10,588 bases of DNA from a virus. Below are positions 651 through 5,406 of this stretch, piece by piece. The translations under genes were made by a program, and so were the position numbers. Positions within the stretch are counted from its first letter, which is position 1. Each line of letters opens with the position of its first letter. The DNA is taken from the UHGV virus genome UHGV-0127658; one strand, written 5' to 3'. The notes under the pieces are model-generated. The model was not told the origin of the DNA. It saw nothing but the letters and a program-made list of their open reading frames with translations, and searched no databases.

Positions 651-947
651 TCAGAACTCCATCTGGATTTGTTCAGAACGCTCGGTTGCCGCCGGGCGTT
701 TTTTATTGGTGAGTCCATCAAGCGCATACTTAAAAGCCCTGCTAATCGGACTGATGTCTGATGCCATTCCGAAAGCACACAAGACCGAAGCAATAAATCT
801 CCAATCCGTTCTGCTTATCTTCGATTCATGACAGCCAATCATCTTTGCCAGACCGCGCTGGGTAATAGCTGACAGATTGATAAGTAAATCTGTTTCTGCG
901 CGATCAACGTCACGCTGTGATAGTTTGCTGTAACTTGTTCTTTCCAT
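651..947 (-). CDS. cII: CII transcriptional activator (lysogeny establishment), chimeric: lambda-type C-terminus with a divergent N-terminal two-thirds
   Basis: 98-aa minus-strand ORF. The last ~20 residues, TNKKRPAATERSEQIQMEF, match what I recall of lambda CII; the preceding part does not. The spacer to the O start (619-650) also looks lambda-like. Position between cro and O is canonical. Confidence 0.85.
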   Translation of the reverse strand: MERTSYSKLSQRDVDRAETDLLINLSAITQRGLAKMIGCHESKISRTDWRFIASVLCAFGMASDISPISRAFKYALDGLTNKKRPAATERSEQIQMEF

Positions 948-1032
948 TTCTTAAGATTTCCAATAGTGAATAGTTAGTTGAAAGGTATGCGTGGAAACGC
1001 ATATGGCCTTAGTTGGTCAGATATCTTGGAAC

Positions 1033-1077
1033 TCGCTTTTCAGCGACGTAGGACGAATGTCCGTTGTTACAAAGAGC
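1033..1077 (-). promoter_or_regulatory. nutR-like N-utilisation site: boxA (1077-1064, GCTCTTTGTAACAA) and boxB hairpin (1046-1033, UCGCUGAAAAGCGA)
   Basis: Lies immediately downstream of the cro stop on the transcribed (minus) strand. boxA resembles the consensus CGCTCTTTAACAA. boxB is a 4-bp stem with a UGAAAA loop and is nearly identical to the nutL hairpin at 3875-3888; both are preceded by CTACG. Confidence 0.6.
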
Positions 1078-1088
1078 GGATCCGCTTA

Positions 1089-1304
1089 TTAAGCGGCTTT
1101 GTGTTCCGGCGGGAACACGTCATCAAGACTGACTTTTGCGCCTAACTTGTTTAGGCACGCAACAAGAGCACGGCATGTTTTAAGGTCTGGGAAGCGACGA
1201 CCAGATTCCCAATGTCCGATAGCTCCCTGTGTGCATCCAACTGCCTTAGCAAGTGTTGTTTGAGAGATATTCAGTGACTCTCGATATTTTCGTAGGTTGC
1301 TCAT
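1089..1304 (-). CDS. cro: Cro-like HTH (XRE-type) repressor, 71 aa
   Basis: The ORF-track entry 1089..1397 is trimmed to the internal ATG at 1304-1302, which is preceded by GGAGGG (1313-1308). Protein MSNLRKYRESLNISQTTLAKAVGCTQGAIGHWESG... has a helix-turn-helix whose recognition-helix motif TQGAIGHW is mirrored in the divergent cI (TQGGIGHW). Position and divergent orientation relative to cI fit cro. Not lambda Cro by sequence. Confidence 0.75.
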   Translation of the reverse strand: MSNLRKYRESLNISQTTLAKAVGCTQGAIGHWESGRRFPDLKTCRALVACLNKLGAKVSLDDVFPPEHKAA

Positions 1305-1420
1305 ATGCCCTCCATAGTAAACACGAATAAAAAATACAATATGTACTTTACGAATACAAGTAAAAATACACATTGTGCATGGATGGTTCCAGTACAAAGC
1401 GTAATAATAAGGACATGAAA
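1305..1420. promoter_or_regulatory. OR operator / divergent pR-pRM control region
   Basis: 116-bp AT-rich spacer between the divergent cro and cI starts. Candidate pR on the minus strand: -35 TTGTAT (1359-1354), 17-bp spacer, -10 TATTTT (1336-1331). The 13-mer ATATGTACTTTAC (1339-1351) sits in the pR spacer and recurs inverted at the pL region (3777-3789). pRM elements could not be assigned confidently. Confidence 0.6.
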
Positions 1421-2074
1421 ATGAAATGGTATGAACTGGCTAGATCCAGAATGAAAGAGCTCGGCATAACTCAAGAGAAGTTAGCCGAAGAGCTAGGTAT
1501 GACGCAGGGTGGGATTGGACACTGGTTGCGCGGATCTCGTCATCCATCTCTTAGTGATATTGGTGTGGTGTTTAAATACCTTGGTATTGATAACATATCA
1601 TTCAACCACGACGGGACATTTTCACCTGTTGGCGAATACTCATCGGCCCCAGTTAAAAAACAATATGAGTACCCTGTTTTTTCTCATGTTCAGGCTGGGA
1701 TGTTCTCTCCAGAACTCAGAACCTTTACCAAAGGCGATGCGGAGAGATTGGTAAGCACAACCAAAAAAGCCAGTGACTCTGCATTCTGGCTTGAGGTTGA
1801 AGGTAACTCAATGACCGCACCAACAGGTTCCAAGCCCAGCTTTCCTGACGGGATGTTAATTCTGGTTGACCCTGAGCAGGCTGTTGAGCCAGGCGATTTC
1901 TGTATAGCCAGACTTGGTGGTGATGAGTTTACCTTCAAGAAACTGATCAGGGATAGCGGTCAGATGTTTCTACAGCCACTAAACCCACAATACCCAATGA
2001 TCCCATGCAATGAGAGTTGTTCCGTTGTGGGGAAAGTTATCGCTAGTCAGTGGCCTGAAGAGACGTTTGGGTGA
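1421..2074 (+). CDS. cI: CI prophage repressor (HTH DNA-binding domain + LexA/S24-like autocleavage domain), chimeric
   Basis: ORF-track 1373..2074 starts at TTG; I prefer ATG 1421 (AAGGA at 1408-1412, MKWYELAR...). The C-terminal ~135 aa ([28 protein letters not shown]...GNSMTAP...[12 protein letters not shown]...[12 protein letters not shown]) is near-identical to my recollection of lambda CI, including the Ser/Lys catalytic dyad context. The N-terminal ~80 aa is unrelated to lambda CI but carries an HTH. Confidence 0.85.
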
Positions 2075-2173
2075 TGTGACTGCATGTAATTTATCAAAAG
2101 CGCACATACCCTATGCTAAACAACTTACTGATTAATTTACTGAAAATCATTTATTAAAAAATAAGGATTGCCA

Positions 2174-3025
2174 ATGAATTTTTCGGAAGAAAAAAATAAA
2201 GATTTCCCCAAAAAAGTACAAACTTCGCTATTTGAAGTAGATTGTAATGACGGATACTCATTTGTAGATGTCTTGAAGACATGCGAAAATTTCAAACAAA
2301 ACTATGACTTTGAGTACTCTAACGACACTCGGGCAAGGATAAAAAGTCTAATAGTTAACGATGACCAAATCTTTGCTGGGATAACACTCTATGAGCCCAA
2401 AGCTTTGGTCCCGGTAACTCCAAAAGATGGAGACCATAACGATTTGCAGGATGTAGATAATTATGATAAATGCCATATATTCTTGCTTGCAACAGAAAGC
2501 AATATTCTAACAATTTTTCAACTATCAGGAACTCATCCTTTATCTAAGTTAAAAAAAATATTTAGCCTCATGAATATCAATGTGAATATTTCTGAGAAAC
2601 TCAACAAAGATGCACTTGGCAAGATAATAAAAGATGGAATACGCTCCATCAGCCTAAGTATTGAAACAACAAAAGAAGATCTAGAAGAGACAAAAGCAAC
2701 ATCATTAGGTATCACTGGAAAAGCTAAAGAAGCTTTGTCAAGATTATTTGAGAAAGAGCAAGATGATGACAACTCTTTCTATGGGCTTCTGACTCTTGAC
2801 AAGAGACATAACCCAAAACTCTTAAATATTGCGAACAAAAATCCAAGCCTGATCATTGATGAATTATCGGAAGAGTTCTTCATCACAACATCAAAAGGCC
2901 AAGCGATCAAAAGCTCTGAAATCAAAACAAAAAAAGATTATTACACAAGAAAGTATGGCTCTACCACCATAAAAGCGGAACACGCTAAGGAAATTCTTGA
3001 GCACTTCAAGGATTTCATACTATAA
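2174..3025 (+). CDS. Hypothetical soluble protein (~283 aa) at the rexA position; candidate sensor component of a prophage exclusion/abortive-infection pair
   Basis: ORF-track 2168..3025 (TTG start); I prefer ATG 2174 with AAGGA at 2163-2167. Lys/Glu/Asp-rich, no TM segments, no P-loop or other motif I can recognise. Co-directional and immediately downstream of cI. Sampled 60-bp lines give roughly 27% G+C versus roughly 55% in the flanking lambda-like genes (hand count, not a full computation). Confidence 0.7.
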   Translation: MNFSEEKNKDFPKKVQTSLFEVDCNDGYSFVDVLKTCENFKQNYDFEYSNDTRARIKSLIVNDDQIFAGITLYEPKALVPVTPKDGDHNDLQDVDNYDKCHIFLLATESNILTIFQLSGTHPLSKLKKIFSLMNINVNISEKLNKDALGKIIKDGIRSISLSIETTKEDLEETKATSLGITGKAKEALSRLFEKEQDDDNSFYGLLTLDKRHNPKLLNIANKNPSLIIDELSEEFFITTSKGQAIKSSEIKTKKDYYTRKYGSTTIKAEHAKEILEHFKDFIL

Positions 3026-3062
3026 TGGAGGGTTGTACGTATAACCAAAGGGGGAGGTGTGA

Positions 3063-3554
3063 ATGAGAGGTAAAGATTGGAGTTATATTTTTTCCATAAT
3101 CTTTTTTATCTGCCTTTCTCTTGTATTAACTTATTATTTACATGATAAGGTTAGATATAACAAAGAGTTGCTTGGACTTGTGGCAAATATATTTTCAATA
3201 TTAACAGGGTTTCTGTTACTTGTTATAACCACAAGTGGAGACGTAGCATCGTTTACAGAAGGTAAATCAAGATCAGAAAAGTATGCAACTAAGAGGAAAT
3301 TCGAAATTCGGTTTTCTCGTTACATGATGCTTTTTTACCTCTATCTTACAGTCTTGTGCTTAATATTCTTCTACTACATGCTGCTGCCACCAGGAGACAC
3401 CAGTAAAATCTTAGCAAGCAAGCCGCCTGTGACCAACCTGAGTCTGGCACTTGAGTTTATTATATGCTGGCTAAGCATAATTTCATTTGGATGCTCTTTT
3501 TTCATACCAATAAAGCTGAAACAGATTTATAACGAAAAACTCAAGCAACAATAA
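3063..3554 (+). CDS. Hypothetical small inner-membrane protein (163 aa, four predicted TM helices) at the rexB position; candidate membrane effector
   Basis: ATG 3063 preceded by GGGGGAGG (3050-3057). Four hydrophobic stretches of about 20 aa: WSYIFSIIFFICLSLVLTYYL, LLGLVANIFSILTGFLLLVITT, YMMLFYLYLTVLCLIFFYYMLL, LSLALEFIICWLSIISFGCSFFIPI. Same AT-rich composition as the upstream gene. Topology resembles RexB-type proteins, but the sequence is not what I recall for lambda RexB. Confidence 0.75.
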   Translation: MRGKDWSYIFSIIFFICLSLVLTYYLHDKVRYNKELLGLVANIFSILTGFLLLVITTSGDVASFTEGKSRSEKYATKRKFEIRFSRYMMLFYLYLTVLCLIFFYYMLLPPGDTSKILASKPPVTNLSLALEFIICWLSIISFGCSFFIPIKLKQIYNEKLKQQ

Positions 3555-3580
3555 CCCGGTCTCAGCGCCGGGTTTTCTTT
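3554..3580 (+). terminator. Rho-independent terminator closing the cI / rex-position operon (t-imm analogue)
   Basis: Stem ACCCGG (3554-3559) / CCGGGT (3568-3573) with loop tctcagcg, followed by TTTCTTT (3574-3580), directly after the membrane-protein stop. Confidence 0.6.
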
Positions 3581-3763
3581 GCCTCACGATCGCCCCACCT
3601 AAAAACACATAACCAATTGTATTTATTGAAAAATAAATAGATGCAACCCACTAAACCACGCAATTCTGATCTCTCCTTACATCGCCGAGGCAATACATCC
3701 ACGCTAAAAAACAACACTATTAAATACAAAGCGTTATAAAAAACCACGCCAACTTACAACAAA

Positions 3764-3797
3764 TTGTATTGATCTTGTAAAGTACATATCGTACTAT
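3764..3797 (+). promoter_or_regulatory. Candidate pL promoter with overlapping OL operator
   Basis: -35 TTGATC (3769-3774), 17-bp spacer, -10 TACTAT (3792-3797). The 15-bp palindrome AGTACatatcGTACT (3781-3795) and the inverted copy of the OR 13-mer (3777-3789) overlap the spacer and -10. It is upstream of nutL and N. Confidence 0.5.
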
Positions 3798-3843
3798 TTA
3801 ATCGTCAGCAGGACGCTGGAAGCCAAATGGAACAGACTGGCAG

Positions 3844-3888
3844 GCTCTTTAAACAACGTCGACTCTCGACTACGTGGCTGAAAAGCCA
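3844..3888 (+). promoter_or_regulatory. nutL-like site: boxA (3844-3856, GCTCTTTAAACAA) and boxB hairpin (3875-3888, UGGCUGAAAAGCCA)
   Basis: Located between the candidate pL and the N start. boxA is close to the consensus; boxB matches the nutR hairpin except for the compensating stem pair. An alternative small hairpin GTCGActcTCGAC lies at 3858-3870. Confidence 0.6.
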
Positions 3889-3986
3889 GATCACCCAACC
3901 ACATAAGCTGTGGGATGCAATGCCGAAGCAACCGTCTCAGGAGGAGCTTCGAGATTGCATCGCCAAAGTTTATTCGGGAGGAATCC

Positions 3987-4259
3987 ATGTCCAGAAAAAC
4001 AGAATTTAAAGGCACCGCAGCTTCTCGCCGTAGAGCTCGTCGCGCAAATCTGCAAAGTCAGGAGGCGATCAGCTCCGACAAGCTACACAGGCCAACCCCT
4101 TCACGAGTGGTCTTGCAATGCAAGCGCAAACCAGCAATGAGAGCAGAAGTGATAACTCTGACAACGTTGACCAGAAAATATGAAGGTTCAACTTGTCTTC
4201 CGAACGTAGCCATTTACGCGGCAGGCTACAGGAAATCAAAACAACTGACGGCGAGATGA
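3987..4259 (+). CDS. N: N-type transcription antitermination protein (P22 gp24-like C-terminus), 90 aa
   Basis: The ORF-track entry 3915..4259 is trimmed to ATG 3987, preceded by GGGAGG (3976-3981). Arginine-rich motif near the N-terminus (TAASRRRARRANLQ). The C-terminus LPNVAIYAAGYRKSKQLTAR closely resembles what I recall of the P22 gene 24 product (…LPGVALYAAGHRKSKQITAR). First gene after pL/nutL. Confidence 0.75.
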   Translation: MSRKTEFKGTAASRRRARRANLQSQEAISSDKLHRPTPSRVVLQCKRKPAMRAEVITLTTLTRKYEGSTCLPNVAIYAAGYRKSKQLTAR

Positions 4260-4274
4260 TAAATCATTTGCTAA

Positions 4275-4856
4275 TTACTTGTTTTTGCCATGCTTATCCT
4301 GAGCGATAAGTTCATCCATAAGACTGTCTTTCTTCCCAGCAAACCTAATGTAGCACTCATTTCTATAGCGTTCCGGGATAACAAAACGGTCGATTTCAGG
4401 ATATCCAGTAGCAGAAGGTATCCGAATAAGAAGCCCTTTTTCGAGCAATGAGATTGCTTCAGGGCTTCCCTTTTCTGTCTTTAGCTGGTTATTCGCGGCT
4501 ACAGCGAATGCCAAATACGCTCTTTCTCCAAGAGTTAACGAATCAAACAAATCTTGCACATATTTTTCTTCTTTAGATTTGCGCTTCTGAGCAGCGGATA
4601 CCTCAATTCTTTCAGTCACAGCGTGATAAGCGGAATTAACAACACCGTTAAGCACATAGCTAACGCAGAACAACAGGATGTAATACATCCAATAATGAGG
4701 AAGGATTTCTGGATTATGCAGGTTTATCCATTCTTTTACGCTTACCGGCATAACAATAATCAATATGATCAGGATGATTAGCATATGAATCAACTGTTTA
4801 AGTGTCATTCCTTGCAGGAAAAAATGCATTAGTTCCTGCCACCATGAGTTGTTCAT
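4275..4856 (-). CDS. sieB: SieB-like superinfection exclusion membrane protein (193 aa), antisense to the pL operon
   Basis: Position between N and ral on the opposite strand is as in lambda and P22. Size is close to the ~192 aa I recall for P22 SieB. N-terminal hydrophobic segments (LIHMLIILIILIIVMPVSV, WMYYILLFCVSYVLNGVV). An alternative in-frame start exists at 4829. Assignment rests on synteny and topology, not verified homology. Confidence 0.55.
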   Translation of the reverse strand: MNNSWWQELMHFFLQGMTLKQLIHMLIILIILIIVMPVSVKEWINLHNPEILPHYWMYYILLFCVSYVLNGVVNSAYHAVTERIEVSAAQKRKSKEEKYVQDLFDSLTLGERAYLAFAVAANNQLKTEKGSPEAISLLEKGLLIRIPSATGYPEIDRFVIPERYRNECYIRFAGKKDSLMDELIAQDKHGKNK

Positions 4857-5270: not shown

Positions 5271-5406
5271 TAGTGGCCTTTATTTTTGGCATAAATAACA
5301 GAATAAACACTGCACTGTGTATTCATTCCAACGAGTGAATACACGGAGAAGTGTCGCTCGTAACTAAACAGGAGCCGACTTGTTCTGATTATTGGAAATC
5401 TTCTTT

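Follow-up and report, generated by a model that had tools for sequence, protein, structure and literature searches.

The window analysed here, the whole of a 10,588-nt stretch of the virus genome UHGV-0127658, carries a lambdoid immunity region in which an identical 13-mer is found in opposite orientations at the operator regions OR (between cro and cI) and OL (upstream of N). This 13-mer is very probably a piece of the promoter-proximal operators, OR1 and OL1, in a lysis/lysogeny switch of the lambda type whose immunity is that of VT2-Sakai (Sp5). As part of the same reading, and with the same high confidence, the unit of recognition is predicted from sequence to be one of six imperfect dyads of 15-17 bp, organised as 6-3-6 with the consensus A(A/G)TAC(A/G)-N3-(C/T)GTA(C/T)T. 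The reading is directly supported by the positions and sequences of the sites, by their conservation, by their identity with the annotation of VT2-Sakai, and by the domains of cI and Cro. Coordinates refer to the window, position 1 being its first letter, and those of individual features are collected in Table 1.

Operator dyads and the repeated 13-mer

In the original prediction, the 13-mer was proposed as the repressor operator shared by both divergent control regions. Both copies were recovered, ATATGTACTTTAC at OR and its exact reverse complement GTAAAGTACATAT at OL, together with the palindrome AGTACATATCGTACT (also given as AGTACatatcGTACT) at 3781-3795, whose 5-bp arms AGTAC/GTACT are perfect and which proved to be the core of OL1. 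The copies are located in the 17-bp spacers of pR and pL, as had been suggested, and the annotation of VT2-Sakai has both promoters at the same places. The 13-mer does form part of repressor operators at both control regions, but it was not upheld as the recognition unit, being composed of the centre and one half-site of the OR1/OL1 dyad (10 nt) and of 3 nt of flank outside the operator, with the other half-site omitted. The similarity between the two regions extends in the same register to 24 of 28 positions (1324-1351 versus the reverse complement of 3777-3804), a stretch that takes in the promoter spacer and -10 region besides the operator. In VT2-Sakai, OR1 and OL1 share only the 11-mer GAAGTACATAT, and the 13-mer is therefore lineage-specific; the three bases by which it exceeds the shared 10-mer are promoter-spacer flank that is identical by happenstance in this lineage. 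The suggested search for near-matches to the 13-mer did not define the operator set, since at up to three mismatches it yielded four matches in the window, with 2.85 expected (that is, background), namely the two exact copies and two background matches, and missed the other four sites.

Several imperfect dyad-symmetric sites with one half-site consensus are present between cro and cI and upstream of N, where they overlap pR, pRM, and pL. Among the 12 half-sites of the six dyads, position 1 is A in 11, position 2 is G in five and A in four, position 3 is T in nine, positions 4 and 5 are A and C in all 12, and position 6 is A in nine and G in three. OL3 and OR3 have in common the direct 10-mer TACAAAGCGT (3725-3734 and 1393-1402), and 10 nt is the length of the longest direct word common to the OR and OL regions. 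A generic repeat finder applied to OR and OL reported no clear dyads, flagging the relation between OR1 and OR3 and several AT-rich pairs. Three further candidates were discarded. The palindrome TACAAcaaaTTGTA at 3755-3768 was considered as OL2, but position 3757 is G in most variants and the 6-3-6 register fits better; a single half-site AATACA overlying the -35 of pR (1353-1358) was considered as a seventh site, but positions 1355 and 1356 vary and it is not conserved; and a dyad-like match at 4670-4684 within sieB is at chance level.

Conservation was assessed by scanning IMG/VR with the N-terminal 93 residues of cI, which produced 80 loci that share this DNA-binding domain of cI, and by aligning the 28 distinct OR and 35 distinct OL sequences of these loci. 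The N-terminal domain of cI is identical in 69 of the 80 loci and differs in the other 11 at S45D, D46E, and I59V, all outside the TQGGIGHW segment; Cro is nearly invariant. DNA identity ranges from 86.6 to 100% in OR and from 78 to 99% in OL. Variable columns account for 10 of 72 in the half-sites, 6 of 18 in the central 3 bp, and 67 of 122 in the remaining intergenic sequence, so that, among phages of this immunity, the recognition positions are better conserved than the adjacent non-coding DNA, the pattern expected of purifying selection. Most changes within half-sites affect positions 2 and 6, which are degenerate (1338 A/G, 1392 G/A, 3732 C/T, and 3765 T/C).

Considered site by site, the half-site columns of OR1 are conserved in the 28 OR variants with 1338 alone varying (A or G), the half-sites of OR2 are invariant with changes at the centre bases 1371 and 1372, and OR3 varies only at 1392 (G or A, the degenerate half-site position) and at the central position 1397. 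OL1 is conserved except for its centre base 3787 and variants found in single sequences, and OL3 is located within a conserved block in the 35 OL variants. At position 3757 of OL2 the window has C and 26 of the 35 variants have G, a change towards the consensus that gives the better half-site AGAACA. The 13-mer is present at both places in only 10 of the 80 loci, the 10-mer ATATGTACTT in 52; conservation does not extend to the tail of the 13-mer, columns 1349-1352 varying in 10-60% of the distinct variants, and the flanks take many forms.

The immunity type of the window is, as judged from sequence comparison, that of VT2-Sakai (Sp5), Stx2 phage 1717, and CP-933H. The N-terminal domain of cI matches that of VT2-Sakai with 98.9% identity and those of many phages encoding Shiga toxin (Stx) 2a with 100% identity. 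The six 17-bp VT2-SA operators have been listed (Table S1 of PMC10742460), and they are the six core dyads found here, each extended by one base on either side; compared with the window, OR1, OR2, and OL1 have no mismatch, and OR3, OL2, and OL3 have one each, which for OR3 is at the central base 1397 and for OL2 at 3757. In the VT2-Sakai record AP000422.1, the six sites are labelled 'putative operator' and pR, pL, pRM, nutL, nutR, tR1, a CII site, and, adjoining the latter, a second 'putative maintenance promoter for cI' are annotated as well, all of which map to the window; the operator features are not present in records NC_000902.1 and AP000363.1. The two control systems thus have the same six sites in the same order, the same promoters, nut sites, tR1, and CII site, and, by annotation, a Cro of the same family; they differ in the spacer flanks around OR1 and OL1 and in the cargo genes between cI and OL, and the window is not from an Stx phage backbone.

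The positions of pR and pL were read from the sequence independently of AP000422.1 and then agreed with its 'putative major rightward promoter' (3 mismatches, all in the spacer) and 'putative major leftward promoter' (4 mismatches). A generic sigma-70 scan of the window missed pR, pRM, and pL, all of which are weak matches. The operators and the arrangement of the switch were already known and on record for VT2-Sakai, and the prediction of a concrete operator candidate, although it led to real operators, was not new, as the six sites and pR, pL, and pRM are annotated as putative in AP000422.1.

The suggestion that the immunity specificity is unusual found no support, because at least 56 phage records carry the cI N-terminal domain at 99% identity or more, and a query of positions 1200-1700 (5' part of cro, OR, and the cI N-terminal domain) matches 1191 of 5426 complete Escherichia coli genomes, in 776 of which the match covers 80% or more of the query. 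The window can be placed in an immunity group that is named and very common, and among whose members is the Stx2 prophage Sp5 of E. coli O157:H7 Sakai. Although little here is new, the sites, promoters, and nut sites being putative features of AP000422.1 already, the comparison of about 80 loci lends support to the sites as annotated and confines the core of recognition to 6-3-6 bp. This type of switch controls the induction of Shiga-toxin phages, and footprinting of its operators with the cognate repressor appears to be a small but real gap in the accessible literature.

Evaluation of the operator assignment and of rival explanations

Several observations weigh against the assignment of six lambda-type operators. 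When the window was scanned with a dyad matrix, the six sites were among the 7 best scores and OR1 had the top score, but the matrix had been trained on these same six sites and the scan is partly circular. In a search with the consensus, only OR1 and OL1 (no mismatches) and OR3 (one mismatch) were clearly above background; OR2, OL2, and OL3 have two mismatches, a level at which 7 other positions of the window also match and approximately 5.5 are expected. These three sites are consequently not separable from background by sequence alone, and their assignment is based on position, conservation, and annotation. The comparison of half-site with other intergenic columns gave a Fisher p of approximately 1e-8, which is optimistic because the loci are related and the alignment columns are not independent. 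The distances between site centres, 32 bp for OR1-OR2, 26 bp for OR2-OR3, 25 bp for OL1-OL2, and 33 bp for OL2-OL3, are unlike the 23-24 bp of lambda (where the operator spacings are 24/23 and 24/20 bp), so that cooperativity between OR1 and OR2 in the manner of lambda is not assured. Finally, binding data for the cognate cI or Cro were not found in the accessible literature, the features of AP000422.1 are labelled 'putative', and a full-text literature search with the exact operator strings returned no match.

The spacing data bear on one variant of the switch, in which cooperativity would be wired unlike that of lambda, for example between OR2 and OR3 and not between OR1 and OR2, with pR then repressed via OR1 alone; this is considered unlikely. 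All variants are free of indels in the 25-26 bp spacings, and some have indels of 1-2 bp in the 32-33 bp spacings. The fixed spacings are most simply explained if a single promoter is enclosed by each short pair, pRM by OR2-OR3 and pL by OL1-OL2.

The repeat could be a chance match in AT-rich DNA. Repeated 13-mers are not rare in the window, which contains seven shared 13-mer pairs, of which 4 are direct and 3 inverted, and, as given above, the number of near-matches is that of background. A 13-mer common to the cro-cI intergenic region (1305-1420) and the N-upstream region (3700-3826) is rare, however, this length being reached in only 5 of 5000 shuffles, and the copies are found in two control regions of about 120 bp in the same register to the -35 and -10 hexamers (p of about 0.001); given this location, the conservation, and the coincidence with annotated operators, chance is refuted for practical purposes. 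The same rarity, together with the exact match at 13 of 13 positions, could be taken to mean that the 13-mer itself is recognised, as an asymmetric site read in opposite orientations at pR and pL. This is highly improbable, as the 13-mer is kept at both places in so few of the loci and is reduced to an 11-mer in VT2-Sakai, as its last 3-4 bases vary freely and the dyad half that it omits (1333-1338 and 3790-3795) is conserved, and as OR and OL hold no further near-copy of it and yet have four more dyads. Very remote, too, is the idea that the sites are SOS boxes of host LexA and not operators of a phage repressor. The AT-rich dyad does resemble sequences of the TACTGTATAT type, and RefSeq records call the repressor 'LexA family'; that label refers to the S24 self-cleavage domain of cI, and the SOS-box pattern CTGT-N8-ACAG was not found in OR or OL with up to two mismatches.

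There is about an even chance that the identity of the two copies arose because the promoter cassettes of pR and pL (each comprising spacer, operator, and -10) share an ancestor or underwent gene conversion, and does not reflect operator function as such. The similarity at 24 of 28 positions reaches past the dyad into the -10 region, with the two promoters aligned in one register. Such an origin would explain the 3 flank bases and is compatible with the operator reading, but it fails to explain why half-sites are selectively conserved relative to centres and flanks across lineages. The reading of the 13-mer as a fragment of the OR1 and OL1 dyads is retained.

Proposed mechanism and comparison with related switches

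Binding, the order of affinities, transcription starts, activation, cooperativity, and looping are inferred here. The dyads would be read by dimers of cI through its N-terminal helix-turn-helix (HTH) domain, HTH_3, and presumably also by Cro, in which the HTH segment is nearly the same (TQGAIGHW in Cro, TQGGIGHW in cI). Dimers of cI on OR1 and OL1 would occlude the spacer and -10 of pR and pL and exclude RNA polymerase, with OL2 covering the -35 of pL. OR2 abuts the -35 of pRM (1380-1385), as does OR2 of lambda, where this position serves self-activation by cI, and the location of OR3 over the spacer and -10 of pRM would provide for negative autoregulation and for shut-off by Cro. Because the C-terminal domain of cI is essentially that of lambda, cooperativity between dimers, octamer-mediated looping between OL and OR over approximately 2.45 kb, and RecA-stimulated self-cleavage are expected as in lambda. 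The centres of OR1 and OL1 are 2448 bp apart in the window, and the copies of the 10-mer are separated by 1586-2441 bp in other loci.

OR is flanked by two divergent genes, one for an HTH repressor that carries an S24 self-cleavage domain and the other for a small HTH Cro. The DNA-binding domain of cI is an HTH_3 of the phage L / ST64T / epsilon34 / VT2-Sa type, whereas its residues 82-217 match the lambda cI structures 3bdn and 8gmu almost residue for residue; the C-terminal Peptidase_S24 domain is nearly identical to that of lambda cI and includes the Ala-Gly site in VQAGMF and the GNSM and FKKL motifs. From these similarities, the switch appears to join the cooperativity domain of lambda to a DNA-binding domain of the phage L type.

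The arrangement resembles that of lambda in having three plus three imperfect 17-bp dyads with an odd centre, in the location of the first operator over the -10 of pR and pL, of OR2 beside the -35 of pRM, and of OR3 over pRM, in the distance of approximately 2.4 kb between OL and OR, and in the nearly identical C-terminal domain of cI. It differs in the half-site, which is TATCAC in lambda and A(A/G)TAC(A/G) here, and in the N-terminal domain, which is only distantly related; moreover, OR2 of the window does not overlap the -35 of pR, and rexA and rexB are replaced by two unrelated genes. In lambda, pR and pL share CTGGCGGTGATA plus flanks. The OR1 and OL1 sites of lambda are likewise near-identical (Table S1 of PMC10742460). 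The cI protein of VT2-Sa has been described as resembling lambda cI in its C-terminal half but not in its N-terminal half, and VT2-Sa as showing cross-immunity with lambda, in statements that PMC10742460 attributes to Fattah et al. 2000. The only binding data in the accessible literature come from electrophoretic mobility shift assays in which lambda cI was used with VT2-SA operator oligonucleotides, at 3.7-6.4 micromolar and with a micromolar Kd (PMC10742460); they say little about the cognate repressor.

Closer parallels to the half-site are found in the Salmonella phages epsilon34 and ST64T, which have C2/Cro of the phage L type. In the epsilon34 record, 13-bp 'potential repressor-binding sites' read ATACACATCGTAT, ATACAAATTGTAT, and ATACAAAATGTAT at the annotated coordinates, and the OR of ST64T contains AATACATTTCGTACT and AATACAATATGTGTG; these have the half-site ATACA / TGTAT with a 3-bp centre, as in the window. 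The HTH segments are related as well (TQGAIGHW in ST64T, TKGAVSHW in epsilon34), and in an alignment of the N-terminal domains, identity to cI of the window is 52% for epsilon34 and 46% for ST64T. Both phages differ from the window in being P22-like, with other backbones, and the epsilon34 record has two sites per control region, given as 13-mers. The sites of epsilon34 and ST64T and the relatedness of the HTH segments imply that the half-site is a property of the repressor clade.

Gene layout and other control elements

The window was assigned on the basis of its open reading frame map and family scans, and it is a lambdoid immunity region in an orientation reversed relative to that usual for lambda. 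The gene order is cII-cro on the minus strand, OR, cI with two cargo genes on the plus strand, OL/pL, and N; the sequence between the terminator of the cargo genes and N is an AT-rich control region. The closest phage records are Escherichia phages 2G7b and PhiR11_1, with 99.6% identity over 3.3 kb.

Table 1. Coordinates of operators, promoters, genes, and other elements in the window
Feature	Position	Strand	Sequence or product	Remarks
OR1	1332-1348		AAATACAATATGTACTT; core 1333-1347, AATACA-ATA-TGTACT	Centre 1340; in pR spacer and -10
OR2	1364-1380		AAATACACATTGTGCAT; core 1365-1379, AATACA-CAT-TGTGCA	Centre 1372; between -35 of pR and -35 of pRM
OR3	1390-1406		CAGTACAAAGCGTAATA; core 1391-1405, AGTACA-AAG-CGTAAT	Centre 1398; over pRM spacer and -10
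OL1	3780-3796		AAGTACATATCGTACTA; core 3781-3795, AGTACA-TAT-CGTACT	Centre 3788; in pL spacer and -10
OL2	3755-3771		TACAACAAATTGTATTG; core 3756-3770, ACAACA-AAT-TGTATT	Centre 3763; over -35 of pL
OL3	3722-3738		AAATACAAAGCGTTATA; core 3723-3737, AATACA-AAG-CGTTAT	Centre 3730
13-mer at OR	1339-1351	+		1339-1348 inside OR1; 1349-1351 pR spacer flank
13-mer at OL	3777-3789	-		3780-3789 inside OL1; 3777-3779 pL spacer flank
pR	1359 to 1331	-	TTGTAT-17-TATTTT	Transcribes cro; read from sequence
pRM	1380-1408	+	TGGATG-17-AATAAT	Putative maintenance promoter for cI; mapped from AP000422.1, 1 mismatch
pL	3769-3797	+	TTGATC-17-TACTAT	Transcribes nutL and N; read from sequence
O		-	Replication gene with iterons	Annotated as O in PhiR11_1
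cII	651-947	-		
CII box	925-938		TTGCTGTAACTTGT	Maps from AP000422.1
Promoter adjoining CII site	929-957			Taken to be pRE; maps from AP000422.1
tR1	978-1003			Maps from AP000422.1
nutR	1039-1078	-		Identical to VT2-Sakai 'putative N-utilization' feature
cro	1089-1304	-	Cro, 71 amino acids	HTH_3 (Pfam); PDB matches found
cI	1421-2074	+	cI repressor, 217 amino acids	HTH_3 and C-terminal Peptidase_S24 (Pfam)
Cargo gene 1	2174-3025	+	283 amino acids	Function unassigned
Cargo gene 2	3063-3554	+	163 amino acids	Function unassigned
Terminator	3553-3574			After cargo genes
nutL	3843-3883	+		Identical to VT2-Sakai 'putative N-utilization' feature
N	3987-4259	+	N antiterminator	First gene of pL operon; Pfam N_peptide, E = 8e-32; annotated N in PhiR11_1
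sieB		-		After N

The start of cI differs between records, being placed at window position 1379 in PhiR11_1 (231 amino acids) and at the ATG equivalent to 1421 in AP000422.1 (217 amino acids). The long form would place OR3 within the coding sequence; the short form is favoured because the variants at 1389-1390, 1392, and 1397 are all non-synonymous in the long frame. If the annotated pRM is used, transcription is predicted to begin near 1415, at an ATG, and the transcript is possibly leaderless as in lambda; the starts predicted for pR and pL are near 1324 (minus strand) and 3804 (plus strand). The public VT2-Sakai sequences also conflict on cI, which is truncated to 169 amino acids in NC_000902.1 and AP000363.1 and is intact (654 bp) in AP000422.1; NC_000902.1 contains an additional 'c1 repressor protein fragment', and the cI spans compared were 2901-3596 of NC_000902.1 and 3456-4109 of AP000422.1. 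The discrepancy reflects either a frameshift or a sequencing difference. Two of the 80 IMG/VR loci have a frameshifted cro with OR and cI intact and are probably decaying prophages that retain immunity.

The two cargo genes fill the slot that rexA and rexB occupy in lambda, between cI and its terminator. The larger protein was without a match in Pfam or PADLOC, its sole match being phrog_23561 (unknown function), and the smaller had no match at all in the family scans; the latter is rich in hydrophobic stretches and is probably a membrane protein. In phages of the same immunity, other cargo in this slot consists of DUF1828 or NYN-domain genes, and the position between cI and OL looks like a swappable slot for morons or exclusion genes.

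The nutL and nutR sites contain the boxA-like sequences GCTCTTTAA and CGCTCTTTGTAA. The boxB-like hairpins GGCTGAAAAGCC (3874-3885) and CGCTGAAAAGCG (reverse complement of 1034-1045) start within the nut features and extend a few bases past their downstream ends. Iteron-like direct repeats of the CCCTCAAAAC / GTTTTGAGGGAT type are present within the O gene at 190-290, the 12-mer GTTTTGAGGGAT occurring at 192 and 259; they are the expected lambdoid ori. A second exact inverted 13-mer, AAGATTTCCAATA, is found at 953-965, just downstream of the pRE -10 region, and at 5390-5402, upstream of ea10, where a terminator-like hairpin (GCCCTCCAATGTGAGGGC, then a run of T) lies beside it. This pair was examined and set aside, since no cII box accompanies the copy at 5390, and it is probably due to chance.

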